Positions 1-42,400 of a DNA stretch of 64,000 nucleotides are shown one piece after another. Position numbers and translations under genes: made by a program. The stretch comes from an uncultured Clostridia bacterium (GTDB lineage Bacteria > Bacillota > Clostridia > Christensenellales > UBA3700), in the NCBI GenBank assembly GCA_947177795.1, contig CAMWVR010000001.1, forward strand, positions 6,101 to 70,100. The letters are read 5' to 3'. Under the pieces are notes generated by a model. That model was not told where the DNA came from and ran no database searches. It saw only the letters and a list, made by a program, of their open reading frames with translations. Position 1 is the first letter of the stretch. Each line of letters starts with the position of its first letter.

Positions 1-758
1 GAAATAATTTTTTGCATGACTTGTCCAGTTGATTGTATTTTATCCTTTTTGTCATTCAGATAGTCGAATATTTTAGATAAATCGGAATACTGCGATCTAT
101 CAATTGAAAGATCTTTGTATCTTGGATGATTATCTGGTAAATAAACTGGTTGCAGTGTAATATAATTTATTCCATTTTCTATAGCCCAATCAATTAGATC
201 GTAAGCAAATTTTAAATTGTATTTTGTTAAAACACTATAAATTCCTACATCATAGCTTAAAAAATACTCCTTTCGCAATTGCAACACGTGTTTTATATTT
301 GCTAATGCGTTATCTCCATATAGTCGAGTTCTATTATTGATTTCAATGATATTAGAATCAATTGAAGTAGAAATCATTTTAATCATTCCTTTCTTAAGCA
401 TCACATCTATAGATTGCGGCCAAAAAGAGAAATTTGATAACAAGCACACATTAATGCCATTATTATTAAATTGAGCAATTATATCTTCTAGATCATCTCT
501 TAAAAACGGCTCGCCACCACATATATGTACCACTTCCAAGCCTTTTTTTGCTAAAAAGGCAATTCCATTGCAAATATCTTCAAACGAGGCCTCACGCGCT
601 ATGGAGTTTTGCGCTAAATAGGAGCTCCCATCGAAAGTTCCATAGCAGTAAATACAATTTGAATTGCATCGTGAAGTAATATGCCAAAGTGCACACTTCC
701 TTTTAGGGGAAGGTACTTCTACTTCAGCGAACGAATTTCTAATCAATACATTTGGCAT
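1..758 (-). CDS. radical SAM enzyme; 3' end runs off the window
   Basis: Absent from the ORF track because there is no stop in the window. My translation from the ATG at 756-758 reads MPNVLIRNSFAEVEVPSPKRKCALWHITSRCNSNCIYCYGTFDG...VVHICGGEPFLRDD...ISTSIDS. It contains the CxxxCxxC cluster (CNSNCIYC) and a GGEPFL SAM-binding motif. The start lies 4 nt after the stop of the upstream ORF. Confidence 0.8.
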   Translation of the reverse strand, partial: MPNVLIRNSFAEVEVPSPKRKCALWHITSRCNSNCIYCYGTFDGSSYLAQNSIAREASFEDICNGIAFLAKKGLEVVHICGGEPFLRDDLEDIIAQFNNNGINVCLLSNFSFWPQSIDVMLKKGMIKMISTSIDSNIIEINNRTRLYGDNALANIKHVLQLRKEYFLSYDVGIYSVLTKYNLKFAYDLIDWAIENGINYITLQPVYLPDNHPRYKDLSIDRSQYSDLSKIFDYLNDKKDKIQSTGQVMQKII

Positions 759-762
759 AATT

Positions 763-2952
763 CTATTCCTTACTTTTTTTCATATAGGTAGATCGCAATA
801 TTTCTTCGCATGGATGAATATCAAAATAGGTCCATACATCATTAATATTTCTTTTGAAAGCATAAAACCATTCGGCTAGCAAAGGAGCCTCATCCAAAGG
901 AAGCTTTCTGTCTCCTAGAAAATATATTTCCTTACGCAGGTCATAGTGACGGTTTAATGATTCCTTCACAAGATTAACAATCTCTGCATTAATTAAATCA
1001 ATAATGCTGTAAGTCAAACTAATTGTGTCCTTTCTATAAAAATTAACAGGATACCCATCTGCGATTAAAGTAATACTTTTACCATTGGAATTATAAATAA
1101 AGCTACACTCCGTTCCGAAATTTTTCCTTGTAATTTTAATGGAATTTATTTCGTCAGCAATTTCATTCTCCAAATGATGGTGACTACCATCAAAGAATTC
1201 AATTACACTTTGAAATTCAACACGTTTAGAAGATGCACTTGCTAAATAGATATGGGAAATATTGCTACAAATAAACTGCCTAAGCATTTCAAAAGTAAAA
1301 GAAGAGTTTCCTGTTGCTCCAATGATTATAATATCATCTGCGTCAGTAAAAGGAAATAGGTTGTCATCACATACTATGGTGAAACCATCATTTTTAGCGG
1401 CTTGTATTATCTTTTCAGAGATATCATATACATATACATTGCATTTCATTGCTTTTAGCGATAATGCAAGATTCCTGCCTATACTACCATATCCAATAAC
1501 CACGACTGTATGATAGGATAAAAAACAGTCGGCCATATATAATAAATAATTTAATTCATCAATAACACGGCGAGCGACAAAAAAAGACTCCATTCTCATT
1601 TTAATATTAGAACGTGCTACCGTTAACACGGGGTAATTAAGCGAATTTGTTTCATAGAAATGTAGGCATCTTCTTACCCCAGACGCCGTTTGTTCTATGC
1701 TACCAATTATACGATTTCTATCAATTAATCCTTTTTTAATTTGTTTATCTAATCTAACGTAATGAAACCCTCCGTCCTCTACTATTAAAAGTCTTAAAGA
1801 TCTATCTTCATTTAATTTAGGAACAATTACCTCTTCTATTGCATAATCAATTAATTTATCCATTGTAGCACTAAAATCATCAACTGTTTCAATGTTTTTT
1901 TTATCATCTTTTAGAAAGAATTGACCATTATCTACATTGGCATAAAGTGTTTTATAAATTGGAACGGGTGCTATTTCATAATTACTATACGGAATAGCGA
2001 TATATATTAAAGAAGACGACAGACTAGCAAAAAGCTTGTTTAATTCTAGGATATCTGTTAAATAATGGTTAATATGTAGTATTATAGTTTTTTTCGAGTT
2101 TGCAGTATTAATTTGTAGTGCCACTTTATTTGTTGTAGGCATATTCTCACAACGATAAACTGTATCATTGTCTGGAAGCTTTATCCCTGTAAAAGTATAT
2201 ATTGTTGAAAAGAATTGTTTGATTGGGAGCATCATCCATTCTTCTGCAGACATTGAATCGCTCGATGAGTCTGAATCTATATTAAATAACTTATCTTCTC
2301 CAATAATTTTTGAGTAATTTTTTGTGGAAAGGTCAAGCAATAATCTTTTTATTGAAAAAGCGGCTGATTCAAAACCAAATTTATAGATGGGATGAGAGAA
2401 ATATCTTTTGTATGCAATAGATGGTTGATAAATTTCACTACTAACATCTAGATAATGAAGAAAAATTATATCGGATATTATCACCTTGTTATCCTCATTA
2501 ATAAATATGCCTACTGGATCAATATTGCCGCACAATATGTGTTGGTTGTTGCATAATTGCAAATAGTTGCAACTTGAACTAAGTATTTGTGTTAATAATG
2601 AGATATGTTCTATTTTAGTAAAATCCAAATGGGATAATGGAATACATCGTTTGTATGCATAATAAATCGACTGCGAATTATTATCCCAGCCTAAGTCTTC
2701 CAATTCATCATATAGAGAGGGATTATTCCTCCGTGATTTTTCTATTGCTACATGGAGGAGATCAAAATCATCACGAGTACAGCTCTTTAGTTGTATTAAT
2801 AAAACAACTTTATTTTTTGCAAACGAAAACGCGTAACTTATTATTTTCTTTTCAGTAAAATATATTATTTTATGAATTCTGTACTGCAGGTTAGATATTT
2901 TTTCGTCACTATTTATACTGTCGATCCTATTATAAAGTTCTTCAAAATTCAT
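763..2952 (-). CDS. fusion protein: unknown N-terminal region plus adenosylhomocysteinase-like NAD-binding C-terminal domain
   Basis: 729-aa ORF. The C-terminal ~400 aa carry SAH-hydrolase family signatures in the canonical order: LLIVEDGG (cf. DDGGD), GSIEQTASGVRR (cf. EETTTGVHR), VVVIGYGSIGRNLA (Rossmann GxGxxG), DIIIIGATGN and ADGYPVNF (cf. AEGRLVNL). The N-terminal ~330 aa are unassigned. HILCGNIDPVGIFINEDNKVIISD is only weakly kinase-like. Confidence 0.7.
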   Translation of the reverse strand: MNFEELYNRIDSINSDEKISNLQYRIHKIIYFTEKKIISYAFSFAKNKVVLLIQLKSCTRDDFDLLHVAIEKSRRNNPSLYDELEDLGWDNNSQSIYYAYKRCIPLSHLDFTKIEHISLLTQILSSSCNYLQLCNNQHILCGNIDPVGIFINEDNKVIISDIIFLHYLDVSSEIYQPSIAYKRYFSHPIYKFGFESAAFSIKRLLLDLSTKNYSKIIGEDKLFNIDSDSSSDSMSAEEWMMLPIKQFFSTIYTFTGIKLPDNDTVYRCENMPTTNKVALQINTANSKKTIILHINHYLTDILELNKLFASLSSSLIYIAIPYSNYEIAPVPIYKTLYANVDNGQFFLKDDKKNIETVDDFSATMDKLIDYAIEEVIVPKLNEDRSLRLLIVEDGGFHYVRLDKQIKKGLIDRNRIIGSIEQTASGVRRCLHFYETNSLNYPVLTVARSNIKMRMESFFVARRVIDELNYLLYMADCFLSYHTVVVIGYGSIGRNLALSLKAMKCNVYVYDISEKIIQAAKNDGFTIVCDDNLFPFTDADDIIIIGATGNSSFTFEMLRQFICSNISHIYLASASSKRVEFQSVIEFFDGSHHHLENEIADEINSIKITRKNFGTECSFIYNSNGKSITLIADGYPVNFYRKDTISLTYSIIDLINAEIVNLVKESLNRHYDLRKEIYFLGDRKLPLDEAPLLAEWFYAFKRNINDVWTYFDIHPCEEILRSTYMKKSKE

Positions 2953-2969
2953 CTTTTGTAAATTTCAGT

Positions 2970-3347
2970 CTACTCCTCATCATAATATATGCTATTATCT
3001 GGGGTCCAAGCTGGAGCACAAACAACTATAAACTCTAGATCACAGTCGCCTTCACAAAAAATCTGGTGCTTCTCATTTTGCTGAATCAAGATAGCATCTC
3101 CAGGTGTAAGATGATAGTCCTTATCATCAACTACCATTTTAGCAAATCCCTTCAATATATAATAAGTTTCTTCTGCAATAGGATGAGAATGCTTTTGCGA
3201 TGAACAATTCTTAGGAATGATAACATACCCAAAACTATGGTACAACGCTTTTCCTAATTCTATAGGGGCCCCTATCATCTCAAAAACTTGTTCCCCAGTT
3301 TTACTAACACAGGGCGCTTTGACGAAATCTTTTCTTGTTAGTCTCAT
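2970..3347 (-). CDS. cupin domain protein
   Basis: The ORF 2970..3392 contains the cupin_2 pattern HSHPIAEETYYILKGFAKMVVDDKDYHLTPGDAILIQQNEKHQI. I prefer the internal start MRLTRKDF at 3347 because AAGGAG lies 7 nt upstream. Confidence 0.75.
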   Translation of the reverse strand: MRLTRKDFVKAPCVSKTGEQVFEMIGAPIELGKALYHSFGYVIIPKNCSSQKHSHPIAEETYYILKGFAKMVVDDKDYHLTPGDAILIQQNEKHQIFCEGDCDLEFIVVCAPAWTPDNSIYYDEE

Positions 3348-3445
3348 AAAATTCTCCTTAATTAATAAAATTATATTTATATTATAAAACATTTCAACTC
3401 AAAAGTCAATGTTTTTCTGTAATTGTTAATGGTTTTGTCACTTTG

Positions 3446-4144
3446 TTAGTTCATAAGTTCTTTTTTATATTTGTAATAGCTATTTCTACTACACCCACAT
3501 AGTTTAATAACTTCATCATCAGAAAGACTTCCGCCAAAACTCTTGGAATGAGTTTGTATTATCTTCTTACAGTCTATGGACTTCTTCGTAGTTAGGCTAG
3601 TACCTTTCACCAAACCTATTTGACTTCCCTTTACCTTGCCTTCTCTCATTCCTTCTGATATTCTTTGATGCAAGTCTGTTACTTCCTTTTCTGACTGCTC
3701 GAATGCTACCTTAATTTGTTGTTGAGCGAGTTTCATCAATAGTTTATTTACAAGTTCCATATTACCTACAAAATATTCGTCAATAGCATCGTTACCTGTA
3801 TTGACTTCTATATCCAAAACCTTTGCTACTGACTTCCTATAGACTTCCGTATTTATATGGGGCTCTTTAAGAAAAACTAAATTTATATCTTTGTTGAACA
3901 ATTCTTGATAGTTTGCAAACCCTTCGTCTGCATTTCTACTCATACGGCTCACGCTGTCAAAAACTACAATATCCCCACTCCTAAGCATCTTCTTCAACCT
4001 CTCCCACTCTGGACGAAGTGTAGTTGTACCGGTATAAAATTCGCTTTTAATTATTGCTGATGGGTAGACTGACGTTATGTTTGTTATCTGCCTATCTAAC
4101 TTTTGCTTTCTTGTACTTACTCTAACGTATCCGTATATTGCCAT
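3446..4144 (-). CDS. serine recombinase (resolvase/invertase family)
   Basis: N-terminus MAIYGYVRVSTRKQKLDRQ carries the catalytic Ser motif, followed by DSVSRMSRN. The C-terminal part LSDDEVIKLCGCSRNSYYKYKKEL is HTH-like. Confidence 0.9.
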   Translation of the reverse strand: MAIYGYVRVSTRKQKLDRQITNITSVYPSAIIKSEFYTGTTTLRPEWERLKKMLRSGDIVVFDSVSRMSRNADEGFANYQELFNKDINLVFLKEPHINTEVYRKSVAKVLDIEVNTGNDAIDEYFVGNMELVNKLLMKLAQQQIKVAFEQSEKEVTDLHQRISEGMREGKVKGSQIGLVKGTSLTTKKSIDCKKIIQTHSKSFGGSLSDDEVIKLCGCSRNSYYKYKKELMN

Positions 4145-4271: not shown

Positions 4272-5327
4272 TTAATTGTTTGTCCTAGAATTTAACAACT
4301 CTGTCAAATAATCTGCTACTTCTTTTGTGATGGTCACCGCTACGTCTTTGTGATGCGTTTGTATCCAAATGTGAAACATATCTCTTTGCCATGTAGCAAA
4401 ATAATGTTTATCGTCTAATATCATTTCAAGTTCCAATCCTCTCGGATTGATAGGAGCATAACGAACATATTTCTTTTTTACCGAAAGAATAGTTAACATA
4501 TTCAAACTATAGACTTGTCTTTGTGGCACACAGCGATTTTGCCCGTCAAGTTTGGTCAAATAATCAGCAATCTTTTGAGTTGCACAATCGCAAAGATACT
4601 TACACTCATAACGTAAATACATATCACCTGCATTCAATAATGGAAAATCTCCACCTTTAACCCAAGCAATAAGTTTGTCAGAGAGTCTATTCTGCTGTTG
4701 CTCTATAGCACCGAAGAAAGTAGATTTCTTCAAAAAAGTCTGTACACTGCAGACGTCTTGTCTTATATCATCCTTTTTCCCTACACTTATGAATTGATAG
4801 CGAAAGTCTGGTAACCTTCTAAAATATATCTTTTTATCTATGAATGTCGCACACAAGAACCCATCATCCATCTGTATTGCCTTCTTGTATTCTACAAGGA
4901 AATCTCGAAAGCACTCATTCAATAATTTTACCTGCTCGGATGTTGGCGCATAAATTTTATTCTTTCGTCTTATTCTTCCACCTAGCAAAGTAAATTCGTC
5001 TTCATAAAAATAGTGCTTGACGGCATAGGTACGGTTATTCCCTGATACCCCTTTAAATATAATTTTCTCATTATCAAATTTAGGTCGGCTTCTATCTGCA
5101 CGAATTCTCTCCAACCAATCCACAACTAACTGATTGCTCAACAAATCGTGAACTTCTGCCCAATCTACAAGCCATGTCAATGGAATATTATCTAGTTCTT
5201 GCTTTGAAAAACTACGAATATCCTCCACCGACACTTGCTCTAACTTCTCAAAGTATTTATCATCTAAACAGTTGTACTGCCATATATATTGTTTGCTTTT
5301 CAATTTAGATTGCTTGTCGTTTTCCAT
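4272..5327 (-). CDS. hypothetical protein
   Basis: 351-aa ORF with ATG start and island-like AT-rich composition. I recognise no motif. Confidence 0.6.
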   Translation of the reverse strand: MENDKQSKLKSKQYIWQYNCLDDKYFEKLEQVSVEDIRSFSKQELDNIPLTWLVDWAEVHDLLSNQLVVDWLERIRADRSRPKFDNEKIIFKGVSGNNRTYAVKHYFYEDEFTLLGGRIRRKNKIYAPTSEQVKLLNECFRDFLVEYKKAIQMDDGFLCATFIDKKIYFRRLPDFRYQFISVGKKDDIRQDVCSVQTFLKKSTFFGAIEQQQNRLSDKLIAWVKGGDFPLLNAGDMYLRYECKYLCDCATQKIADYLTKLDGQNRCVPQRQVYSLNMLTILSVKKKYVRYAPINPRGLELEMILDDKHYFATWQRDMFHIWIQTHHKDVAVTITKEVADYLTELLNSRTNN

Positions 5328-6046: not shown

Positions 6047-8014
6047 ATGGACAAAAATAGTCATTGGTTAGAATGTGAAACTTGTAATAATAAAACTCAA
6101 CTCGAAAATCATATTGCAGGAGCAAACGCAACAGAAACTACTCCACAGACCTGTACTGTGTGTGGCTATATTATTGCCACTCCAATAGGTCATACTCATA
6201 ATCCAACTCCTGTTGCTGCTAAATCTGCTACTTGCACTGAAGATGGAAACTTGCTTTATTACGTTTGTTCATGTGGAAAATGGTTTCTTGATAGCAATGC
6301 TACTAATGAAATAATTGACCACACCAGTATAGTTACAAAGGCTACTGGACATACATACTCTACTGACTGGACATATAATTCCACTTACCATTGGCATTCC
6401 TCAACATGTGAACATTCTGCTGAAAGAGGTGACGTTTCCGAGCATACTTTTGTGAATAACATTTGTTCAGTTTGTACTTATACCAAACCTACTACACCAA
6501 TTGCAATTTCAGAAGTCTACTTAAATAAATCTTCAATTAATTTAGATATTAATGAAAGCGAAACACTTGTAGAAACAATTATACCTACAAATGCAACAGA
6601 AACTATAAATTGGATAAGTACTGCCCCATCTATCGCTACAGTGAATAATGGTAAAGTAACAGGCATAAGTAATGGCTCAGCCGTAATTATCGCAATTTCT
6701 CCAAGTGGAATTACTGCAACGTGCGAAGTCACAGTTGCAGAAAATACTAATGGCTTTACATTTGAAGAGTTTGGCGAAGGATATGCAGTTGTTAATTATA
6801 CTGGCAAAGAAACTTCATTAGCGATTCCATCAACATACAATGGCAAGCCTGTCATTTCTATAGGTAGAATATACGGATACCCAATCGGTGAAGGCTTAAT
6901 AAATAGCTCTAATATCAAAAATGTCACTCTTCCAAATACATTAAAATACATAGGCGTCCTTTCTTTTGCAAACTGTACGTCTTTGCAAACCATTAATATT
7001 CCAAACAATGTAGTTGCTATTTATCAAGCTGCATTCTCAGGTTGCACTTCCCTTTCGAGCATAACAATTGGAAGTGGAATAAACACTATTCCTGATAAGT
7101 GTTTCTACAACTGTAAAACTTTAACAGCCGTTAGCCTACCGGATACAATTGAAAGCATTGGACAGCAAGCATTTCAAAATTGTGTTTCTTTAAAAACTTT
7201 AGATTTAGGAAATAAGTTAGAATCTATCGGCGAACAAGCATTCTTTGGTTGTGAAAAACTTGAGAGTATCGATATACCAAGCAGTATTAAGTATTTTGAC
7301 TTCTTCCCTAGATTATTTGAAAAGTGTAATAGTTTGAAAAAATTAACTGTTCCATCGCTTTCGTGCGAACTAACCGCTTTATTTTATGAAAATGCTATAC
7401 CCAGCTCATTAATAGAATTAATTGTTTTGGGTGGAAATACAATCAAGGAAGGTGCATTGTCAGGATGTGGAAGTCTTGAAAAACTAACACTCCCTTTCAT
7501 AGGTGCAAACGCTTCAGAAACTACAGCATCCCCATCAACTCTATTCGGTTACGTATTTGGTAAAACAAGCTATACCGGTTCAGCCACAACTAGACAACGT
7601 TATGTTTTAGGAGATACTTATACAACATACCACATCCCTACTAGCTTGAAGCATGTTTCCATATTGGGAGGGGTAATTTTTTTCGGAGCATTTATTAATT
7701 GTGTTAACCTTGAAAGTATTAGCATTTCTAATAACGTAACAAGCATAGGCGACGATGCATTTGAATTATGTAAGAGTTTGACAAGCGTATCATTTGAAGA
7801 TAACTCACAATTGACGAGTATAGGCAATCTCACATTCTATAACTGTAGCAGTTTGTCAAACATGGTAATACCAAGTAGCGTGACAGGTATAGGCGAATAT
7901 GCATTCTCAGGATGCAGCAGTTTGACTATCTACTGTGAGGCAAGTAGTACGCCAAGTGAATGGAGTAGCAATTGGAATCCCGACAATAGACTTGTTGTAT
8001 GGAATTATAAATAA
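6047..8014 (+). CDS. BspA-type leucine-rich-repeat surface protein with Big_2-like Ig domain
   Basis: Cys/His-rich repeats (HTHN...C..CG) are followed by an Ig-like segment ISEVYLNKSSINLDINESETL...TATCEVTV. Then come many LRR_5-type repeats (IPNNV..I...AFSGCTSLSSITI). The frame is open upstream to 5912. Confidence 0.8.
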   Translation: MDKNSHWLECETCNNKTQLENHIAGANATETTPQTCTVCGYIIATPIGHTHNPTPVAAKSATCTEDGNLLYYVCSCGKWFLDSNATNEIIDHTSIVTKATGHTYSTDWTYNSTYHWHSSTCEHSAERGDVSEHTFVNNICSVCTYTKPTTPIAISEVYLNKSSINLDINESETLVETIIPTNATETINWISTAPSIATVNNGKVTGISNGSAVIIAISPSGITATCEVTVAENTNGFTFEEFGEGYAVVNYTGKETSLAIPSTYNGKPVISIGRIYGYPIGEGLINSSNIKNVTLPNTLKYIGVLSFANCTSLQTINIPNNVVAIYQAAFSGCTSLSSITIGSGINTIPDKCFYNCKTLTAVSLPDTIESIGQQAFQNCVSLKTLDLGNKLESIGEQAFFGCEKLESIDIPSSIKYFDFFPRLFEKCNSLKKLTVPSLSCELTALFYENAIPSSLIELIVLGGNTIKEGALSGCGSLEKLTLPFIGANASETTASPSTLFGYVFGKTSYTGSATTRQRYVLGDTYTTYHIPTSLKHVSILGGVIFFGAFINCVNLESISISNNVTSIGDDAFELCKSLTSVSFEDNSQLTSIGNLTFYNCSSLSNMVIPSSVTGIGEYAFSGCSSLTIYCEASSTPSEWSSNWNPDNRLVVWNYK

Positions 8015-8052
8015 AAATTTAGAGGGGGTAAATTTATAATCACCCTAATGTC

Positions 8053-8087
8053 AAAAAGCACCGCAACTCTTTAGCGGTGCTTTTTTC
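8053..8087. terminator. rho-independent terminator, A-run/T-run flanked (bidirectional)
   Basis: AAAAAGCACCGC-aactcttta-GCGGTGCTTTTTT lies between convergent genes. Confidence 0.75.
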
Positions 8088-8279
8088 TTTTAAATATCTT
8101 TATGTTGATAAGTTGTTGAACTCAAATCTACTGCCAACTATATCGCCCACTAATGTTCCCCACATAATTAAATCTCCTATTAATTCTGTGCGACTATTAT
8201 ATTTACTTTATTATTCAAAAGTCAAGTATCAGTCTATATTTTGCAAAGTTGCCTTGATGATATATAAATTTTTTTCTTA

Positions 8280-9667
8280 TTATTTCCCTTCTACCTTCTT
8301 ATACTCATTAAAACTTTCCTCAATATATCTATCTATAGTTTCTGAATAAGTTTCCTTGTCTTCACCTTCTAAGCCACTACAGTAGAAACAATCGTACAAT
8401 AACCAACATTTACGTCCCGATTCCAACAATCTCTGCAAAACTCGCAAGTACACACAAGATTCAGCCAAGAATATTTCAGTTCCATATATCTTGCCACAGG
8501 TTTTTTCGATGGCAACTTTTAATTTTCGCATTTGTTCGTCAACATCTTGCTTCGTAACGCCACTTTTTTTCATATCACGCCAAGTATGATTAACCATATT
8601 TCTCTCAGTGCTGTCAAAATACGCTCTCATAAACAACTTTTTTATTGCTTCCCGCATTTTGTCTGTAAAAGCCTCGTCTTGGTTACAATTCATATAAATT
8701 TTCCCGTATAAATCTACATTTTCTAAAAACCACTCATCATTATTTAAAGATAATGTCAATCTTGGCACAGACGCTCTTACATCTTTCTCTTTTTCTTTAT
8801 CTAATCCATACTTCTCTAATAAAGCATCTCTATCTGCTTTTTTAGTATTATTTAGTGCGGTTGTAGCCCGTATCCCAATTTTCGTAATACTTTTCCTTGA
8901 GTCAGACCATTTAAATGACGGCTTAAACACAATGCTCATTTCTTCCAAACCAGTATAATATATTTCATTTATAGAATCTGCCAATTTTTGATAATATTCT
9001 AATTGTGGATAGTTTTTATTTAAACACCTCGTAAGAAACTTCTCAAACTCAATTTCGCCCATTCCTTCAGGTTTACGTAATCTTAAATTTGATTTAAACA
9101 ACACTCTTGCTTTATTAAAGTTTGAAAGTTTGTCATCATCGTCAATATCTTTACTATCATAGTCATAGTTCTTAATAACATAAGGCTCGATATTATTGTC
9201 TTTACAATACTTAATAAAATTATCTGCGTTCTCCCTATAGAATTTGTATTCACAACATTTGTTCCTCTCGGAAGAATTGTAATTGTAATCAATATTATAA
9301 CCTAGGCTCAAAAGCCCCATATTAATCATTTTTTTTATAGCTTTGCCTATGGTTGTGTGACACCCCAAATATGATGATTTGTTTTACTTCTTGTAGATAC
9401 ATATATCATTGAACATTTTTTTTGCACATATTGGTGTCTCTTAATAAAAGTAAGTATTTTGCTTAATCCTTCTCTCCACTTTTTTTCTGCACCTTTTGCC
9501 GTAGAGCAAGGGGGGATATTTAAAAGTGGTTGTTTATAATAAGGAGCATCTGCTATATCAGCTAACTCAACTTCATCATCTTCTATGTTCAATTTGATTT
9601 TTATATTGCCTAACCTATTAGCAATTTCTTCATATGAAATCATATATATCTCCGTCTTTTGCAACAT
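8280..9667 (-). pseudogene. HTH / replication-initiator-like protein split into two ORFs by a frameshift
   Basis: ORF 9347..9667 ends ...MIYVSTRSKTNHHIWGVTQP*. ORF 8280..9368 begins with a TTG-derived M at GCHTTIGKAIKKMINMGLLSL. Joined, they give a typical winged-helix recognition segment. The shift lies in CATCATATTTGGGGTGTCAC near 9350-9370. Confidence 0.5.
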
Positions 9668-9797
9668 TAATTAATAATAATATTATAATATCATATAATA
9701 TGAAATTCAACAAAAAAAATAAAGATTATTTATGTCATTAAGGCAACTTTGCAAGACAGACAAAATTATGCTTATTTAATAGTTAATCAAGTGGATT

Positions 9798-11066
9798 TTA
9801 TTGGCTGGTTATCTTTTTATAGTTACTAATCATCTTCTGTAATCTAGGCAAGTTACGTAGGCTCTTATCTTTTAGATTGAATAATTCCCCTACTATTCGT
9901 CTACTGATAATAGTCTTAGGATTACTTGCAATATAGTTTTCTACTTTACTGTTGAACTCTTTACAGCATTTGTCGTCTATGGTTTCCCAATCCCATTTTT
10001 TACTTCTATATGGGCTATAAGAACCTTGTGGTTTGGGTTTGTCGTATGTTCCCATTAATACCTGCCTTACTACTTCGTGGCATACATTCATTGCGTTGGC
10101 TATCTCGTATGTATTCTTACCTTGTTGACTTAGTTCTCTAACTCTTCTATCAAAGGTAATATGCTTTGGCTCGGTATAACCTTTATATAAGCACAACTCT
10201 TTAGGTGTTATATCTTCAAACATTGCAACTAATAATATTTCATAGGCATTGAAGAACTTATTCCTAAATATATAAGCAAGCCGAAGTTTATTAATATCAT
10301 AGGACTTTAATCCATCATAATACATTGCCATATCTCTTTCTAGTTCAACTAAATTCCTTTGTTCCCCACGTGGCGATACGTACTCATCTTTTAACTTAAC
10401 TGTAAGATAGTCTCCTAGCGATATATCCGTATCTAAATCAAACGGCTGATGAATAACGTCATTAATATACTTTGCTACTCTTATATTTATATCGTCTTCT
10501 TTATATTCTACTACCTTACCTACTCCACTTGAAGATATAATTTGCTCTAACGGAATTAAAGTTGCACTCCTTCCTTTATTGGGTAACACGGTATCAACTA
10601 ATTCACAGTTATGAAATGGACAAACGTGGATTGACGGTATTAAATGCTGAATATGAAAATAACACTCCCCATACTGCCGTCTATCTTCTTCTACACACTT
10701 GGGGCAATAACTCAAAAAATATTCATTCTTCCTTTGTGATATTGGGAGGTACTGACGAAGTAACGGCTTATTTGTCATAGCGTAATTATAGGCTTTTACT
10801 CTTTTCTCTTTGGGTAGAAATCTTGCATAATAGGCAAATAGAGTATGCTCTAATAGTAATTCTTTATATGGAATAAATCTTTCAAGTGTCTTTCTAAATT
10901 CTTTGCTTAAAGAGTTAATAAAATTATACTCTGGATTCTCATTCCACCGAGCAAATACGTCATTTGCAAACCCTCTGTGCCACACATAACCACTATGAAC
11001 ATAAAGCCTGCATAGATAAGAGTATACGCTCTCATCAGGATAAATAGTGTCAATATACTTTATCAT
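9798..11066 (-). CDS. tniQ: TniQ/TnsD-family transposition target-selection protein
   Basis: The N-terminal YPDESVYSYLCRLYVHSGY is the TniQ signature. The zinc-finger pattern CPKCVEED...YFHIQHLIPSIHVCPFHNCEL is present. The start overlaps the tnsC stop by 4 nt. Confidence 0.85.
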   Translation of the reverse strand: MIKYIDTIYPDESVYSYLCRLYVHSGYVWHRGFANDVFARWNENPEYNFINSLSKEFRKTLERFIPYKELLLEHTLFAYYARFLPKEKRVKAYNYAMTNKPLLRQYLPISQRKNEYFLSYCPKCVEEDRRQYGECYFHIQHLIPSIHVCPFHNCELVDTVLPNKGRSATLIPLEQIISSSGVGKVVEYKEDDINIRVAKYINDVIHQPFDLDTDISLGDYLTVKLKDEYVSPRGEQRNLVELERDMAMYYDGLKSYDINKLRLAYIFRNKFFNAYEILLVAMFEDITPKELCLYKGYTEPKHITFDRRVRELSQQGKNTYEIANAMNVCHEVVRQVLMGTYDKPKPQGSYSPYRSKKWDWETIDDKCCKEFNSKVENYIASNPKTIISRRIVGELFNLKDKSLRNLPRLQKMISNYKKITSQ

Positions 11067-12280
11067 AGTTTGACATACTCCACGTTGATATTATCTTTGA
11101 GCAAGTTGATAAACAAAGTAAGGTCTTTCTTTGACTGCTTTCTGATACTATATAGCAACTGCTGATTATCTAATGGAACGACTACACTTGACTTTACTTC
11201 TTTAATTTCCTTCGTCTTTGCTACCTTTATCTCATCCAACTTGATATACGGTGACATCGTTGCAAAGTTCTCTTGGAAAGTATTCTCAAATTCAATAGTA
11301 CTTAGTTCCTCTTTGCCATTTAATATTACGTTACGTTGCGTTTCTACAAACAAACTGACGAGCATAGATGGGATGCCATTAGATAACTTATATAAAGTCC
11401 TTGCGAACTCGGCATTAAACTCAACCCTTTTTAAAGTGTACTGATATTTAAACAGTATTCTCACGAAGTTAAAATAGTATTCGTCATAGTCCATTTTCTC
11501 TATAGATATTCCTATAGTCCTACGACTTAAATACTCCTTTGTTTCAAAATATCTATTAGCCGATTCATTCCCCACAAAGCAAACTGCAATGTTGGATTGA
11601 TTAACAAGTTGAGTTAAATAATTTATAAGAGTAATTCCTTTTCTGCTGTCATTTGCCACACGCTATATCTCATCTATTACAAGAAGTGCAACATGATTTA
11701 TTAGCACGTTGCTCACCGCAGCTAATAATGCGTCTGTGGTTGCTGTAACGTAGTTATTTGCAACGAAATAATTCGTGCCGAGCAATCTGTCAACCCCTTG
11801 TAAAATTGCGTATAAAAGGCTTTTAAATGAACCGTCTGAAACGCACTCTATGAACAGGATCGGGATAATCTCTCGATATGGTTTTTGGCTAATGAGTATT
11901 TTGTCTGCAATAATGTCAGCACATCTTTGGACACTCGAAGTTTTCCCTAATCCTGCAGTTCCTGTTATCTTAAAAGATTCCAAACCGCCAACCAAGCCAT
12001 AGCGTTTCAAGCCTTTAATTGCCCTAAAATTATCGTTCTGCAAGCTAACTTCCAATAGCGTACTCTTCTTTTCCAACGAATTAAGAATCGCCATATAAAG
12101 CCTATTATAGACGTATAGTGTTATCTTGTTGGGGATATAGAGTTTGTATACGTCTATAAGTGCTGTAAGTCTATCGGGCATCTCTATTAAGCCTTCTTGA
12201 TAGTGTGGCAATACTGTGAGTGCCTTAATAAGTTCCTCGCTTGAAAGGTACTTATTTAACTGTTCTTTTATTCTATCCAT
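11063..12280 (-). pseudogene. tnsC: TnsC/TniB-like AAA+ ATPase interrupted by an in-frame TAG
   Basis: Walker A is GTAGLGKTS and Walker B is LLVIDEI. The next codon (11663-11665) is TAG, and the same frame continues RVANDSRKGITLINY.... The two track ORFs (11663..12280 and 11063..11659) are in one frame. Confidence 0.8.
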
Positions 12281-14060
12281 TATTACCTCCTCTGTTTATC
12301 TCCGACTTTCTATGTTGGCGTACATTTGTTAAGTCTACCTTTTGACCTAAGATAGAGTTGGCAATCAGTTCTATATCCCTTGATAGGTCAATACTACCTT
12401 GTATAGCTATATCCTCAACACTTCTCTCTACTTGCTTCTTTTTCTCTTTTATAGCTTGTACTTCTTCCATATCCATATCGGTAAAATATGATTCTATAAT
12501 CTCAAAAGGTGTGTAAACGCCATTTTCGCACAGCCATACTCTACTTACATTGTTGGGATTGTAGGCAACAACACATTCGCCACCTTTTAGGTATCTTTCA
12601 GTATAGTTTAAATTCTTGTATCTTTCTTTATTTACGTGTAGTCCGTCTCTCTTAAAATAGCCTTTGCCTCTTGGTAATAATGTAAGCCAAAGCATTTCGT
12701 CATCAACTTTTATAAGGTTATTTTTGCTTGACGGCAGACAATAATTCCACAACTCATTTGCAAATGGCTGAACGATTCCTACAGTCTCATATGGTAGATT
12801 TATAATCCTCTTAGAGTTGTATTTGATAATGCAAAGCAAGACTATCTTTTCAAATTCTTTTAATGTGAGCGTAGCATTTTTCCTATAGTCAACACCGCCA
12901 CGCTCTTGATAGTGCTCAAATATTACGCCTTTATTTGCAAGTTCCGTCTTATAGGAGTTCTGTATGATACCAAAGAATCGCTCGACTAAACTCTTTTGGT
13001 CAGGACGATAAGGTGGAAGATTTATTATTTCTACGCCTAATTCTGCAACTTGAGAGAATGTCTCTGAAGTGTATTCTCGACCTTTATCCGTAACGAATTT
13101 GTGGGGTAAACTACTGCAGTCCCATGTGTTAGAATCTATCTCAATGCCAAACTTTTTACAATGCTCTTGCTTATCTGCAACGATATTCTCTATCAATGCT
13201 TTCAGTGAGTTTATACCCTTATCGAAGCATAAAGAATACCCCATACAAAGAGAAGTGTAACCATCCACGCAAGCCGTTAACGTTGGACGTCCCAACAATT
13301 CTCCTTTATCGTTGACTAAAAATATATCGCATACAGTACTATCAAATAATCCAACGCCTATAGAAGAGCAAAAGTCTCTGACATTACCGAGCATAACACG
13401 ATGATTTCTTAAGAACTCCCCCTTGCCCTCTCTCGATATAATCAGATTCTCTCGTTTTACTGTCTTATGGAAAAAGTAATCGAACTGCCTGAAGGTTGGG
13501 ATATGAGAGAGCAATCTACCTTGTTTATCACAGTACTTGTCTTTCAACATTCGGCGGTAGCACTCTATTAAAGGCATTTTAAGAGCATTGAAATAATATT
13601 TGTTCAATGCCCATCTATAGTTTTTCTCATCTGCTGTAAGCGGTTTTTCTTTGCATTTACTGTTGGGCAAAAAGATGCAGATGTCTTGGAAAGCTAAGTA
13701 ATCGCACAATCTACTCTTGATTGTATTCTTACTCAAATGAAACCTCTCGGCACATAAAGCAATGGCTTGATTTCTTTCGTAGTCATTTCCTACAGTTGGA
13801 ATGATAAAACTGATACTGCCATATTTGCTATGAATTATTTGCTTTTGCTGTTGAGAGAGACTGTCATAGCTCACAAGATTAACACCGACTCTTACTCTCA
13901 ACTCCTCCTCTTCTATCTGTAGATAATCTGATAAGAAGTCCTCGCCCACCCAATAAGGCATATTCCTCTTGACGCAATCAATAATCTGTATGCGGTCATC
14001 TTCAATAGTTAAGACCCTATAAATACAGTCGCCTTTATAGAATAAATCATTAATCTTCAT
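12273..14060 (-). CDS. tnsB: TnsB-like DDE (Mu/rve-type) transposase
   Basis: 595 aa. DDE context: STVCDIFLVND, FVTDKGREYTS, QKSLVERFFG. The stop overlaps the tnsC ATG (ATGGATAG). Confidence 0.88.
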   Translation of the reverse strand: MKINDLFYKGDCIYRVLTIEDDRIQIIDCVKRNMPYWVGEDFLSDYLQIEEEELRVRVGVNLVSYDSLSQQQKQIIHSKYGSISFIIPTVGNDYERNQAIALCAERFHLSKNTIKSRLCDYLAFQDICIFLPNSKCKEKPLTADEKNYRWALNKYYFNALKMPLIECYRRMLKDKYCDKQGRLLSHIPTFRQFDYFFHKTVKRENLIISREGKGEFLRNHRVMLGNVRDFCSSIGVGLFDSTVCDIFLVNDKGELLGRPTLTACVDGYTSLCMGYSLCFDKGINSLKALIENIVADKQEHCKKFGIEIDSNTWDCSSLPHKFVTDKGREYTSETFSQVAELGVEIINLPPYRPDQKSLVERFFGIIQNSYKTELANKGVIFEHYQERGGVDYRKNATLTLKEFEKIVLLCIIKYNSKRIINLPYETVGIVQPFANELWNYCLPSSKNNLIKVDDEMLWLTLLPRGKGYFKRDGLHVNKERYKNLNYTERYLKGGECVVAYNPNNVSRVWLCENGVYTPFEIIESYFTDMDMEEVQAIKEKKKQVERSVEDIAIQGSIDLSRDIELIANSILGQKVDLTNVRQHRKSEINRGGNNG

Positions 14061-14397
14061 TAAGTACTATCCCCCAATCCACTATTCCTTTAGACAACCA
14101 ATAATTCCTACTCTCATCAAGTATCTTAATGTAATATGGTTTAAGTAGCTTATCTTTATAGACACACTCTCTAACCATTATCTCGCCATTAGTTTTAATG
14201 CAATAAAAATCTGTAGTAAAACTGCCTTCTACGTTAGAGACATCTATAGGAACATTGCACTTTATCTCTGCTATCTCACTGCTTGAATCTAACTGACAGC
14301 CGTACTTGTACTGCAACTCACTGTAAGCATAAAATATCAAACGACACTTGCTCAGTTTCTTCTTCATTGTTACGCTATGAGTATTCTTGTTCCGCAT
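14050..14397 (-). CDS. tnsA: short TnsA-like endonuclease (restriction-endonuclease fold)
   Basis: 115 aa with the spaced acidic/lysine pattern YSELQY ... TTDFYCI ... RECVYK, like the TnsA E-D-K catalytic core. It overlaps the tnsB start by 11 nt. The assignment rests on position plus a weak motif. Confidence 0.55.
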   Translation of the reverse strand: MRNKNTHSVTMKKKLSKCRLIFYAYSELQYKYGCQLDSSSEIAEIKCNVPIDVSNVEGSFTTDFYCIKTNGEIMVRECVYKDKLLKPYYIKILDESRNYWLSKGIVDWGIVLNED

Positions 14398-14520: not shown

Positions 14521-14544
14521 TTCTCATTTTGCTCAATCACTCTA

Positions 14545-14568
14545 TGTCTTCCGACAAGACTGATTTAC
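14545..14568. repeat. 24-bp terminal-repeat copy, inverted orientation (TGTCTTCCGACAAGACTGATTTAC)
   Basis: Perfect reverse complement of 14761-14784. Confidence 0.85.
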
Positions 14569-14638
14569 GCAAGCCAGACAATTTTCTTTGACACTTCCCC
14601 CAATCAAGTTAGGCTTGTTCCAAGTCTCCTAAGCATAG

Positions 14639-14665
14639 AAAAAAGACCCTACTTTTGTAAGGTCT
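14639..14665 (-). terminator. rho-independent terminator inside the transposon right-end region
   Basis: The minus strand reads AGACCTTAC-aaaa-GTAGGGTCT followed by TTTTTT. It is the first terminator downstream of rpsR. Confidence 0.6.
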
Positions 14666-14760
14666 CCTACTATTTTTTGTTTATTATATAGTTTTTTCTC
14701 TTTGTCTATCTTCCTACATTACTTACCTAATCTACTGCAAGTCTTTTTTGGTAGATTTGT

Positions 14761-14784
14761 GTAAATCAGTCTTGTCGGAAGACA
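14761..14784. repeat. putative Tn7-like right terminus (GTAAATCAGTCTTGTCGGAAGACA)
   Basis: It ends in ACA at 14784, 9 nt before the rpsR stop codon (14794-14796). It coincides with the abrupt change from AT-rich to ~50% GC sequence. Confidence 0.7.
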
Positions 14785-39478: not shown

Positions 39479-42400
39479 TTACAATCTATTCATCAATCTT
39501 TGCTCTTTGAGCAAATCCTGATATCTCTCGATCTGATCTTCTCTGAGGTCGATCATATTCTTTGCGGCTTTGCAAGCCTGAGCGTCGGCGACGACGACTT
39601 CGGTCTCTTTGACTTTGATCTTAGTGCCGTCGTTGGTGGCGTCTTTGCGGATATCCTTGAGATACTCGTCTTCCATTCTGAAGAGAGCCACGGTCGTGTC
39701 TTTCTTTATCGTCAGCTTGATGAGCGGATTGACCGAAGACTGACCCAAGAGAATGAAGTAAGTGGACTTTTTCTCTTTGCACTTGTCTTTCTTCAAAGCG
39801 TATTCTCTAAGGCTGTCAAAGTACTTTTGTTGGGTCTTGGAGAGTTTTGCATAAGCTTCGTCGAGCGTAAGTCTGGGAGCCTTTTCTTTGACTACCGCCG
39901 CGCGGGGAGCCGCGTGAACCTTGACTTCTTTCTCCACGACTTTTTCCACCACCTTCTCGACAGGCACTTCGACTCTCACTTCTTTTTCCACGATCTTTTC
40001 GACGGGCACCTCTTTCTCGACGATTTTCTCGACCTCTACGGGTACTTCGACAATCTTCTCCACGGGCACTTCCACGACTTTTTCGATTATCTGCGGTTCT
40101 GCCACTGCGGCGGCGAGAGGTCTCTCGTCGTTGCGCTCAAGGAGTTTTTCGATGAGCATCTCTTGATTTTTCATCATTTGATTCATACGCTCGTCGTTGC
40201 GCTCCATCATCTTTTGCATATTCTTATCGTTCTTGTCAATCAGCTCTTTGATCGTATTATCGTTGCTTGCAGGTTGAGGCAACATTTGTTGCATACCGGG
40301 GAGCAACGCCGTGACGGTGTCGGAGATGATAGCTCTGACGTCTTCGGGAGCCATGCCGCGCTGAATGCCCATATATGCGCCTCCGCCCTGCGGCGCGCCG
40401 TCGGGTCCGGGTCCCATATTGGCTCCGCCGAACATACGCATGAACATCATCTGCATATCCTCGTCTCTGCGGCGATACTCCTCTTCTCTGCGCATATTGT
40501 CTTCTTCGCGGTGACGGCGATATTCGTCGTCTCTGCGAGAATACTCTGCCTCTCTCTTGCGCTCGTCGAGGTCTTTTTGGTTGCGGTTATACTCTTCGAG
40601 GCTCTCCTCGTAATTCTCTTCCGCCTTGTTGCGTCTGCTCTTGGCGGCGACCATCATGATCAAAGACACCACTGCCAAGCCGATCATGACGCAGGCTATC
40701 GCCGTCCATATCGACATCGCAATACCCAAGAATGACGACGACGTTCCCAAATACGCCATTGCGTAGGCTGACGTATCCAGCTTATCGGATTTTTTCTTAT
40801 ACTTCTTACGCTCGTTGTCAAACTTGGCTGTCTTGGCGAGGAATATTATCGTCAGCAACAGCGAAATTGCAATGGCAATTATCTGCCAAATCGGATAGTC
40901 TTTGAATTTTTGGAGTATCGCGCCAAAGTCGATACCGTTGCCGTCGTTTCCGTCACTTCCACCCGGATTATTACCGCTCGGATTGCTAGGATTGCTTGGA
41001 TCGTCGGGATCGTTGGGAGTGGTATTGGGCGCGTCGGGATCGACGTTGGGATAATTTGGGTTTTTGGGATCGTTGGGGTCATAAAGTCCGCCTGCGATGT
41101 CCGCCTCCGTGAGGCTGAAGGTCAAATAATCCGTATCGAAGTCAGAGCCGTAGCCGTCTGCGACGGAGAATTTGATGTTGTTCTGATAAGCGGGCTTAAT
41201 AGACGCCTTGATCTTATATACGGTATCTTTGACGAGGTCTGTCACCGAAGTGATTTCGTTGCCTGCCTCGTCCGTGATAGTATACTCTATTGCGTTGATT
41301 TGACCGAATGCAAGATCGAGCACGGGCGGTCTTGCGGAATTCTTCCAAGTCGGAGTGATCTCTGCGGGAGTGATCTCAAATTCAAATCTCGTGTCGCCGT
41401 CGATGACGAATCTGTTGGCGTAAGCCGACTTGAGCGTGATCTCCACCCAATACTTACCGCACTCGACGGGAGCTCCGCCCATGAGCGTAAATCCGTCTTC
41501 TTTGAAATAAGCGAGGTCGAAATAACCGTTGTTGAGATTTGCGCCCGTAGTCTGCACCGTGACCTGTCTGGGTTGGGTATTATAAGAGAACGTCGTCTTT
41601 GCAGGCGACACGCCCACCTTGATGATAGAAGCGTTGATAGCGCCTATCATAAAAGGTCTGGACTGCGGATTGGACTTGTCGAACTTATAGTTGACGCTGT
41701 CGGTCAGCGACGGAACTGCCACGTACCACTTTGCGCCGTCCGCAGGCAACTCGAGATCGTTAGCAGTCAAGCCCGTTGCGCCCGCAGGTATAGTGCCGTT
41801 GGAATCCGTCTCGTAATACGTATATTGCACGATAGTGTCGGCTGCGGGGTCTTTGAGAGCCAATACGTTGAAATTCTTGTTGGTGTCGGGATGAGGCACG
41901 CTCTGCCAGCTTGCCGTAGATATCGTGCGAGGCACGACTTCCCAAGGCTGTTCCCAAGTGAACGTACCGTCGTAAGTGACGGGATCGTCTGGGTCTGAAG
42001 GATTAGGCTTGACGGGCAAGATATAATTGCCCACGTAATCGGGATCGAGCTCGAATTCCACCGACGCCGTACCCGTGTCGCCCACCGTTGCGCCTTGATT
42101 GGTGGAATATCCTTGAACCAACAAGCCCTTGGGCAGCGTCTTCGGGTCGAGCGTAGCAGACACTGCCACACCGCCGTTATACGCCAACTGTCCGTTGTCG
42201 AGCCACTTGACGTCGGTCAAGTCAAAGAGCGCAGGGTCTATCTTCCAATTTATCGTAAAGGTGATGACCGAAGCCAAATCGCCGTCTTTCCACACGTCGA
42301 CGATCGTCGTATAGCTGTCTACATTGTAGCCCTTCTTGGTATTGGTAGACGCAGGATCTGTGGTGTCCATCTTGTAGCCGTCGTTGTAACTCGTCGTCTT

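Follow-up and report, generated by a model that had tools for sequence, protein, structure and literature searches.

STAND and NACHT proteins that combine sensors of the FGE-sulfatase type (FGS) with variable N-terminal effectors are associated with defense, and the effectors described there include nucleoside phosphorylase-type domains (PMC13581612; bioRxiv 10.1101/2022.07.19.500537; PMC7159879). Radical S-adenosylmethionine (SAM) enzymes are essential in two multigene anti-phage cassettes, Ophion and HXS; Ophion consists of a radical SAM enzyme with PHP and phosphoribosyltransferase (PRTase) components, and in HXS the radical SAM enzyme matures an effector with HxS repeats (bioRxiv 10.1101/2025.09.30.679545; PMC13128918). 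The locus described here contains both a radical SAM enzyme and a STAND-FGS protein. It lies at the left end of a 64,000-nucleotide stretch of DNA from an uncultured Clostridia bacterium (contig CAMWVR010000001.1, positions 6,101 to 70,100; the whole stretch is referred to below as the window), where an earlier note had pointed to adjacent genes for a cupin, a 729-aa fusion protein and a radical SAM enzyme. The fusion joins a predicted pseudokinase to an enzyme with the fold of S-adenosylhomocysteine hydrolase (SAHH). The trio is unmentioned in the three papers on STAND-FGS proteins (PMC13581612; bioRxiv 10.1101/2022.07.19.500537; PMC7159879), and the STAND systems described to date are single genes or genes with adaptors, and none has been reported to come with an obligatory set of cupin, SAHH-like and radical SAM genes. 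STAND-FGS proteins, and radical SAM enzymes in defense, are known kinds of parts; as far as we can tell, their obligatory link with the pseudokinase-SAHH fusion and the cupin is new.

The first 3347 nucleotides of the window encode, on the minus strand, the cupin, the complete fusion protein and the first 252 residues of the radical SAM enzyme (Table 1). The coordinates of this tightly coupled group were verified: 17 nt separate the cupin stop codon (2972-2970) from the fusion start codon (ATG at 2952), and 4 nt separate the fusion stop codon (765-763) from the start of the radical SAM gene (ATG at 758). The radical SAM translation contains all four of the motifs first picked out by eye (CNSNCIYC, GGEPFL, LLSNFS and ISTSIDS). 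The earlier note had suspected that the operon runs past position 1, and two contigs from other assemblies confirm that it does. These contigs, L009 and L010, are 100% identical to window positions 1-1801 and 1-1787, respectively, and reach further to the left. A gene located 2 nt after the radical SAM gene encodes an 893-aa protein that ends in an FGE-sulfatase domain (E = 1.6e-32), and 22 nt beyond it lies a gene for a 159-aa protein in which three to four segments are hydrophobic. The full-length radical SAM protein of the window (P0012, 331 aa) was retrieved by a search with one of its orthologs, and it was through P0012 that the two contigs were found; an exact look-up of the window fusion protein gave no record. 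The cassette thus comprises five genes in the window lineage and four elsewhere.

The fusion family is rare, with 10 proteins among 5.8 billion in an indexed search and approximately eight full-length clusters at 50% identity among 1.84 billion representatives. The same gene set was found in about 10 independent lineages, at 30-45% protein identity, which is more than chance would give. All four genes are present in the window lineage (completed by L009) and at the loci L001/2, L004, L005/6, L007, L008, L011 (a Ruminococcus metagenome-assembled genome [MAG]), L035-37, L038/39 and L040-42; L043 is truncated, and co-conservation was judged where the flanking sequence was sufficient. The order cupin, fusion, radical SAM is constant, and the fourth gene, encoding a protein of 0.9-1.2 kaa with an FGE-sulfatase end, follows the trio in low-GC lineages or precedes it. 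Most intergenic gaps fall between -23 and +40 nt, with +198 nt as the largest value, and the GC content of the loci spans 29-62%. The sole exception is L003/L013 (a Rhodobacterales MAG, positions 7954-12211), which has no cupin or radical SAM gene near the fusion gene and in which STAND-FGS fragments spread over three open reading frames (ORFs) precede it; this looks like a decayed locus. The earlier note had left room for genes that are not co-conserved, and the opposite was found. It had also allowed for a known biosynthetic cluster, for example one producing a ribosomally synthesized and posttranslationally modified peptide (RiPP). Neither a known biosynthetic cluster nor a curated family claims the genes: none of the curated profiles in Pfam, NCBIfam or PADLOC v2 describes the cassette, and all NCBIfam matches fall far below their cut-offs. 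A conserved small ORF was sought in the gene tables of all the cassette loci and none was found, and a RiPP reading was rejected on this ground. The literature searches returned no paper that describes the gene combination, in agreement with the earlier remark that no described system contains it; the same is true of the profile libraries searched.

The large partner appears from its domain matches to be an NLR-like (STAND) protein ending in an FGS domain. The FGE-sulfatase domain was detected in all partner proteins tested, with E values from 1e-27 to 1e-37 and scores above 96 bits. NACHT domains were detected in L004 (7e-11, 42.6 bits versus a cut-off of 26.7) and L038 (1e-6), both with an N-terminal AAA match. 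Walker A motifs are present in L004, L005, L007 and L008, and the equivalent stretch aligns in L011; in the 1054-1065-aa forms from L005, L007 and L008, the motif reads GxxGTGKS or GxxGTGKT near residue 356. The N termini vary between lineages. Those of L005, L007, L008 and L011 contain a helical domain of approximately 280 aa with one hydrophobic segment, that of L040 gives a weak Mrr_cat match, and that of L035 matches PNP_UDP_1 (6.4e-10), with a methylthioadenosine (MTA)/S-adenosylhomocysteine (SAH) nucleosidase as its best NCBIfam match. The partner thereby resembles antiviral STANDs of the Avs and bNACHT types in its variable N terminus, P-loop STAND NTPase and C-terminal FGS domain, but differs from described STANDs in that its FGS domain is conserved rather than diversified. 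The window-lineage protein (893 aa; L009:2042-4723 and L001:13190-15871) departs further. It aligns throughout with the other partners but has no N-terminal effector domain and no Walker A motif, with IESSDLDIQL in place of IIGxxGTGKS, and approximately 110 aa have been added at its C terminus. The gene for the 159-aa multipass membrane protein follows the STAND-FGS gene in this lineage only. PADLOC-DB v2 has no match for the FGS proteins. Weak matches of the FGS domain to EgtB, OvoA and SenA were noted, and assignment as an EgtB/OvoA-type enzyme was rejected, given the STAND NTPase in the N-terminal part of the protein and matches that lie far below their cut-offs. As a separate observation, the PNP_UDP_1-bearing STAND-FGS of L035 (L035:6166-9600) has as its neighbors an enzyme with the SAHH fold and one that consumes SAM; this arrangement may be a hint that metabolites of the adenosine type are central to the system.

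The C-terminal half of the fusion protein is predicted, from profile and model comparisons, to be a complete two-domain SAHH fold without being a SAHH ortholog. In the window protein, Pfam AdoHcyase_NAD scores above its curated cut-off (3.4e-8), and the NCBIfam adenosylhomocysteinase profile aligns at 2.8e-17, pairing residues 389-678 with profile positions 122-380 of 418. SAHH chains in the PDB match the fusion family profile at 1e-15. An AlphaFold model of the fusion protein had a mean predicted local distance difference test (pLDDT) score of 85.7, and the best 50 Foldseek matches listed were all SAHH or human SAHH-like proteins, with E values down to 7e-18; the SAHH matches gave target-normalized TM scores of 0.70-0.73 over approximately 460 columns. 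The SAHH-like NAD domain proposed in the earlier note was therefore borne out by both kinds of search, and the similarity extends beyond that domain to the whole SAHH fold. The Rossmann NAD site is formed by G487-x-G489-x-x-G492 with D510 as the acidic ribose ligand, and the half carries a conserved set made up of D393, E420-Q421-T422, K451, E455, S574-S575 and N637. Among 136 members of the SAHH-like family, D393, E420, T422, K451, E455, the GxGxxG glycines, D510 and S575 are invariant or nearly so, and N637 is slightly less conserved; this invariance argues for an active enzyme.

HMMER alignments pair the fusion motifs with those of SAHH as follows: EDGG with DDGGD, EQTxSG with EETTTG, K451...E455 with TK...D, and GYGxIGR with GYGxVGRG. 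We take the paired SAHH residues to hold ribose and NAD and to abstract the C4' proton. The hydrolytic histidines of SAHH are a different matter, as their positions are occupied by S575 or by nonconserved residues in the fusion family. The catalytic residues sought in the fusion are thus present as regards the NAD site and the Lys/acid core and absent as regards the hydrolytic histidines. Because the Lys/acid core is kept and the hydrolytic histidines have no conserved counterpart, we infer that this half carries out an NAD-dependent 3'-oxidation on a nucleoside-like substrate and not SAH hydrolysis. It shares with AhcY and AHCYL1/IRBIT the two-domain fold, the NAD site (GxGxxG plus an acidic ligand for the ribose) and the motif equivalents, and differs from them in its low identity (approximately 15-18%), in its NCBIfam score (63 versus a cut-off of 275) and in the pseudokinase fused to the window domain. 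Assignment as an AhcY ortholog was rejected: scores of 50-63 bits compare with cut-offs of 275-498, and the DDGGD, EETTTG, GHFD and GHP motifs are absent.

The N-terminal half of the fusion had been described in the earlier note as unassigned and weakly kinase-like. The kinase fold proved real, and the description can be sharpened to a catalytically dead pseudokinase. The fusion family profile matches the kinase domains of TTK and PknB at approximately 3e-8, ortholog P0008 passes Pfam Pkinase at 1e-7, and in the AlphaFold model the strands and helices of this half follow one another as in a kinase, with pLDDT of 80-90. When P0008 was aligned with Aurora A, HRDIKPEN was replaced by HGLITPD- and the DFG Asp and the APE motif were retained; the window protein has CGNIDP at the HRD position. 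The β3 Lys is missing from all nine aligned fusion sequences. Only the DFG Asp of the catalytic set is kept, and the loss of the catalytic Asp, Lys and Asn is the reason for calling this half a pseudokinase. An active Hanks-type protein kinase was rejected on the same residues, despite the presence of the fold. In PADLOC-DB v2, nothing matches the window fusion, and the only matches in the fusion family, to MkoA and PD-T4-6, come from the P0008 kinase domain.

The radical SAM enzyme is predicted, from its cysteines and its modeled fold, to belong to the twitch/SPASM subgroup. Pfam Radical_SAM (PF04055) matches at E = 3.7e-14 (53.7 bits versus a cut-off of 29.5), the cluster motif C31-x3-C35-x2-C38 and the GGEPF motif are invariant, and C266-x13-G280-x4-C285, C311 and C318 are invariant in eight orthologs. 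These four additional cysteines have the signature of a twitch/SPASM-type auxiliary cluster, as predicted from the alignment. The Pfam SPASM domain was found in ortholog P0173 and gave no match in the window protein. The family comprises about 11 clusters at E<1e-88, after which there is a drop to SPASM-domain enzymes at approximately 1e-19. The AlphaFold model (pLDDT 88.8) folds as a radical SAM core, and its best Foldseek match is SkfB (E 6e-14, TMq 0.66), followed by SuiB, CteB, viperin, BlsE, anSME and MoaA, all within two orders of magnitude. SkfB, BtrN/BlsE, anSME, CteB and SuiB have in common with the window protein the CX3CX2C motif, the C-x13-G-x4-C motif and two further cysteines; unlike these enzymes, the window protein has no Pfam SPASM match, has no precursor peptide gene and reaches the cut-off of no curated family. 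The substrate class cannot be read from radical SAM homology.

The viperin/MoaA-type layout that the earlier note saw in the radical SAM motifs did not hold. Viperin is the best NCBIfam match (4.5e-18) and prokaryotic viperin (pVip) the best PADLOC match (1e-19), but both are subthreshold; the NCBIfam match reaches 64-65 bits versus the NF038283 cut-off of 180 and covers only the N-terminal core, residues 25-183. The C-terminal domain contains the four invariant auxiliary cysteines, whereas viperins have no auxiliary cluster. MoaA was rejected at 52-54 bits versus curated cut-offs of 231-325, with PF06463 (Mob_synth_C-type) not detected. The window protein still resembles pVips in that a radical SAM enzyme occurs in a mobile, defense-type context, its core scores best on viperin profiles and its TMq with viperin is approximately 0.6; it differs, besides the score and the auxiliary domain, in its partners: nucleotide kinases accompany pVips, and here their place is taken by a SAHH-fold enzyme, a cupin and a STAND protein. 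The partner proteins are also entirely different from those of Ophion and HXS, and the match to the HxsB model is weak (1.1e-8, 34 bits versus a cut-off of 370).

The cupin is a single-domain protein assigned to Pfam Cupin_2 (PF07883; 54.4 bits versus a cut-off of 27.2), with metal ligands H53, H55, E59 and H94 (3 His/1 Glu) invariant among its orthologs. PDB searches returned only generic small cupins, neither Pfam nor PDB searches gave a match to acireductone dioxygenase, and PADLOC-DB v2 has no match for the protein. The mechanical ORF reaches position 3392; the orthologs all begin at the internal Met of MRLTRK, which gives 125 aa. The position of the two σ70-like promoter matches agrees with this start, although such matches are not enriched (five found versus 4.9 expected) and constitute weak evidence only. 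Homology of the cassette to the methionine-salvage enzymes MtnK, MtnD and MtnN was considered and rejected, given a dead Hanks-type half, a cupin that does not match acireductone dioxygenase and a nucleosidase-like domain that occurs only in L035.

The cassette proteins differ widely in their rates of evolution. Mean pairwise identity across eight lineages is highest for the cupin (66%) and the FGS domain (56%), intermediate for the SAHH-like half (46%) and the radical SAM enzyme (44%), and lowest for the STAND core (27%) and the pseudokinase (24%), which is the fastest-evolving part of the fusion. An FGS domain more conserved than the SAHH-like and radical SAM enzymes fits a constant ligand better than it fits an evolving phage protein. 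The pairing of an NLR-type STAND with a fast-evolving pseudokinase, possibly a bait or adaptor, recalls the plant NLR ZAR1, which works with the pseudokinase adaptors RKS1 and ZED1 (PMC6634424). This is an analogy only and carries no argument from homology, and in the cassette the pseudokinase shares one polypeptide with an enzyme.

Outside the cassette, the SAHH-like proteins appear, as judged from their motifs, to form a separate and largely unannotated superfamily. It comprises 116 clusters at E<1e-30 among the 1.84 billion representatives and has the signature EDGG / EQT / K...E / SS / GxPxNF; none of 100 family matches checked (P0067-P0166, from the top 150) contains the canonical SAHH motifs, and Pfam gave no match in one standalone member. 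Lachnospiraceae, Blautia, Chloroflexi and Rhodospirillaceae have close standalone paralogs with lengths of 430-490 aa. At 15 of the 22 paralog loci, the SAHH-like gene lies directly upstream of proteins of one neighbor cluster; nine loci have a STAS-type protein before it, and five have a GGDEF protein in the vicinity. The domains of these neighbors were taken from a Pfam scan of one locus, L028, in which STAS comes first, followed by SAHH-like, MatE + HATPase_c_2, the SpoIIE/PP2C phosphatase and finally a small HATPase_c_2 kinase; GGDEF lies close by. These gene neighborhoods indicate that the standalone paralogs sit in putative partner-switching signaling operons. Operons of this kind were seen at L015, L017-L019, L021-L030 and L033, in MAGs as well as isolates, with two loci in Blautia schinkii DSM 10518. 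Three distant superfamily members (P0064, P0126 and P0157) are fusions to an RsbW-type HATPase_c_2 kinase, PRTase-CE and a cytidine/dCMP deaminase. Together with the operons, these fusions tie the SAHH-like fold repeatedly to phospho-signaling and nucleotide processing. For the same reason, the idea that the SAHH fold scavenges by-products of the radical SAM enzyme is not favored.

The cassette occupies a low-GC island. GC content is 0.30-0.38 from window position 1 to approximately 14.5 kb and 0.43-0.48 further to the right. A 55-bp sequence at 14730-14784 is repeated directly, with 100% identity, at L009:5803-5857, approximately 4.0 kb to the left of window position 1. Since this repeat flanks both sides, the island would measure approximately 18.8 kb, with the cassette at its distal end; only one of its boundaries lies inside the window. 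The repeat could have arisen by duplication of an att site, from tandem elements or from a circular form. A 26-bp inverted copy is found at 14543-14568, 160 bp inside, and delimits a unit of approximately 242 bp of the form TGT...ACA. The 23-26-bp TGT...ACA repeats were rejected as Tn7-like ends because, as oriented, they do not bracket the tns genes. The island is accessory, given that the cluster of the host GltX has 54 members on many contigs and that of the fusion one. The transposition genes resemble those of Tn7/Tn5053-type elements. The TnsC/TniB-like gene is split by an in-frame TAG (11663-11665) into ORFs of 205 and 198 aa; this may have inactivated the transposition machinery, or else the TAG may be read through. 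A 115-aa ORF at 14053-14397, spotted by eye as TnsA-like, was rejected with no Pfam match. Of the Tn7-like element proposed in the earlier note, TniQ is clear, the interrupted TnsC/TniB-like gene passes its AAA_22 cut-off and the TnsB-like transposase scores below cut-off. The data support mobile, defense-island cargo; a Tn7-like nature is only partly demonstrated.

The surroundings of the other loci point the same way. A cassette 86% identical to that of the window sits elsewhere in L001, between mgsA and a run of HNH and Abi genes (HNH, AbiLi at 8.5e-49, AbiGi at 1e-84, AbiGii at 3e-66 and a large serine recombinase). The neighbors in L038 are a PbeA-like helicase (2.9e-53), XhoI and IS110. 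As in the window, genes for resolvases or large serine recombinases flank the cassette in L001, L005, L035 and L038.

Taken as a whole, the cassette is probably a conflict or defense system, and it is somewhat likely, with less confidence, that the trio acts on a nucleoside or nucleotide substrate. The reading that we favor combines the two, with the trio as the enzyme core of a mobile, STAND-linked conflict or defense cassette built on nucleoside chemistry, and stands just short of an even chance. The antimetabolite or defense cassette suggested in the earlier note survives in its mobile, defense-type context but not as a free-standing unit, as the trio is wired to a STAND-FGS partner. In the proposed mechanism, the three cotranslated enzymes would share a single substrate of the nucleoside or nucleotide type. 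The radical SAM enzyme would take a hydrogen atom from the sugar or the base; the SAHH-fold enzyme, with tightly bound NAD+, would perform a transient 3'-oxidation that allows elimination or epimerization; and the cupin would contribute a metal-dependent isomerization, dehydration or oxygenation. The fast-evolving pseudokinase would provide an infection-sensing or regulatory surface. The enzymes would then produce a small-molecule ligand, the conserved FGS domain of the STAND protein would read it, and the STAND protein would trigger a lineage-specific effector. In the window lineage, the C-terminal coiled-coil extension of the STAND protein and the membrane protein would take the effector role. 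A signaling model is favored because of the conservation pattern, the interchangeable N-terminal effectors and the signaling contexts of the paralogs; the full wiring from pseudokinase sensor through ligand and FGS domain to STAND effector is a tentative proposal, in our estimate doubtful as a whole. Its most specific form, a small-molecule-gated bacterial NLR in which the pseudokinase-regulated trio makes a nucleoside-derived second messenger and the FGS domain is the receptor, is rather unlikely.

Several observations weigh against the favored reading. We know of no bacterial STAND gated by a small molecule, and known STAND sensors bind phage proteins. PADLOC contains no fusion, cupin or FGS model and the fusion has no relatives in the viral-contig, GenBank phage and PLSDB plasmid collections, so the defense role rests on architecture and neighborhood; few loci have informative flanks. 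Peptide maturases (SkfB, SuiB, CteB and anSME) are among the proteins structurally closest to the radical SAM enzyme. The mapping of catalytic residues onto SAHH derives from profile alignments and motif knowledge rather than from a superposed active site. The window-lineage STAND protein has no P-loop and the tnsC-like gene of the island carries a nonsense codon; with the missing N-terminal effector, these features suggest that the window copy may be derived or partly decayed.

Among the other explanations, a viperin-style effector is unlikely as an account of the cassette. It would have STAND-FGS sense a phage component and the trio deliver the output, either a toxic or chain-terminating nucleoside or nucleotide analog or the destruction of an essential adenosine-type metabolite; this amounts to the proposal of the earlier note supplemented by a sensor. 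A constant trio beside STAND N termini that vary or are absent would suit such an arrangement, as would the weak preference of the radical SAM core for viperin models and the fusion of distant SAHH-like proteins to nucleotide-modifying domains. With neither effector nor Walker A motif in the window STAND, the enzymes or the membrane protein must also give the output there. The STAND proteins of most lineages, however, already possess an effector-type N-terminal domain, the viperin cut-off is missed widely (65 versus 180 bits) by a protein with an auxiliary-cluster domain, and the high conservation of the FGS domain is unexpected for a sensor of phage proteins. Prokaryotic viperins, to our knowledge, need no dedicated sensor, which also counts against this explanation. 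A role in maturation, whereby the radical SAM enzyme, aided by the cupin and the SAHH-like enzyme, modifies STAND-FGS or an unrecognized peptide, for example by Cys/Ser oxidation or a thioether cross-link, with the pseudokinase as a substrate-docking module, is very unlikely. The cassette loci have no conserved small ORF, and an NAD-dependent SAHH fold with a nucleoside-type core has no obvious peptide role. Twitch enzymes such as BlsE, which is among the Foldseek matches, act on nucleosides and sugars. In favor of maturation are the best structural neighbors (SkfB, SuiB, CteB and anSME), the sequence similarity outside the family, which is closest to SPASM-domain enzymes, and the CX13GX4C motif with its two additional invariant cysteines. 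The 2-nt distance between the radical SAM and FGS genes in the window lineage is consistent with maturation of the partner, and the defense effector of HXS, matured by a radical SAM enzyme, offers a precedent (PMC13128918).

It is likewise very unlikely that the cassette is nondefense cargo, that is, a metabolic, salvage or regulatory module for SAH, MTA or 5'-deoxyadenosine carried on mobile elements, with STAND-FGS as a regulator or enzyme. The folds do loosely echo the metabolism of SAM by-products (the SAHH fold, the MTA/SAH-nucleosidase-like domain of L035, the kinase-like half and the cupin), yet the similarity of the kinase half, which is catalytically dead, is to Hanks-type protein kinases and not to kinases of small molecules, and the cupin has no acireductone dioxygenase match. 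The FGS domain is conserved in the manner of an enzyme and has weak matches to EgtB, OvoA and SenA, but where EgtB has a DinB-type iron domain, this protein has a STAND NTPase as its N-terminal part. Close SAHH-like paralogs do occur in ordinary partner-switching operons of Lachnospiraceae; the cassette itself is extremely rare and patchy, spans 29-62% GC and has Abi, restriction and recombinase neighbors.

If the favored reading of a nucleoside-based cassette is extended to anti-phage activity, the system would be an NLR-like STAND hard-wired to radical SAM and NAD-dependent nucleoside chemistry, extending both the viperin and the STAND paradigms. The second-messenger form, if true, would join signaling logic of the CBASS and Thoeris type with NLR-type execution and would give the large unannotated SAHH-like superfamily its first function. 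The substrate of that superfamily could reveal a new nucleoside signal or antimetabolite. The cassette is compact, with four to five genes and clear catalytic residues, so that point mutants can be designed directly.

Table 1. Features of the cassette and its island in the window
Feature	Position	Strand	Remarks
Radical SAM enzyme, 5' part (aa 1-252 of 331)	1..758	-	ATG at 758, runs past position 1; full protein P0012
Fusion of predicted pseudokinase and SAHH-fold NAD enzyme, 729 aa	763..2952	-	
Predicted pseudokinase domain (Hanks-type kinase fold), ~aa 20-255	2188..2895	-	
SAHH-like two-domain fold (predicted), ~aa 270-729	766..2145	-	
Single-domain metal cupin, 125 aa	2970..3347	-	Pfam Cupin_2 1e-14
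Two overlapping σ70-like promoter matches (11/12 positions)	3370..3409	-	Just upstream of cupin start
Serine recombinase (resolvase)	3446..4144	-	Directly upstream of cassette; Pfam Resolvase 1.8e-17
TniQ	9798-11066	-	3.8e-17, 63.7 bits, above cut-off
TnsC/TniB-like ATPase	11063-12280	-	AAA_22 above cut-off
TnsB-like DDE transposase	12273-14060	-	rve and Mu-transpos_C below cut-off
Island boundary beside rpsR	14543..14784	.	GC rise at ~14.5 kb and repeats

Two further island ORFs on the minus strand, at 4272-5327 (351 aa) and 8280-9368 (362 aa), have no match in Pfam, NCBIfam or PADLOC. The island also contains, on the plus strand at 6047-8014, a gene for a 655-aa BspA-type leucine-rich repeat protein (LRR_5 E = 7e-71) with a Big_2 domain. 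The higher-GC host part of the window includes two long minus-strand ORFs, one of 1816 aa at 39479-44929 and one of 1415 aa at 59580-63827.

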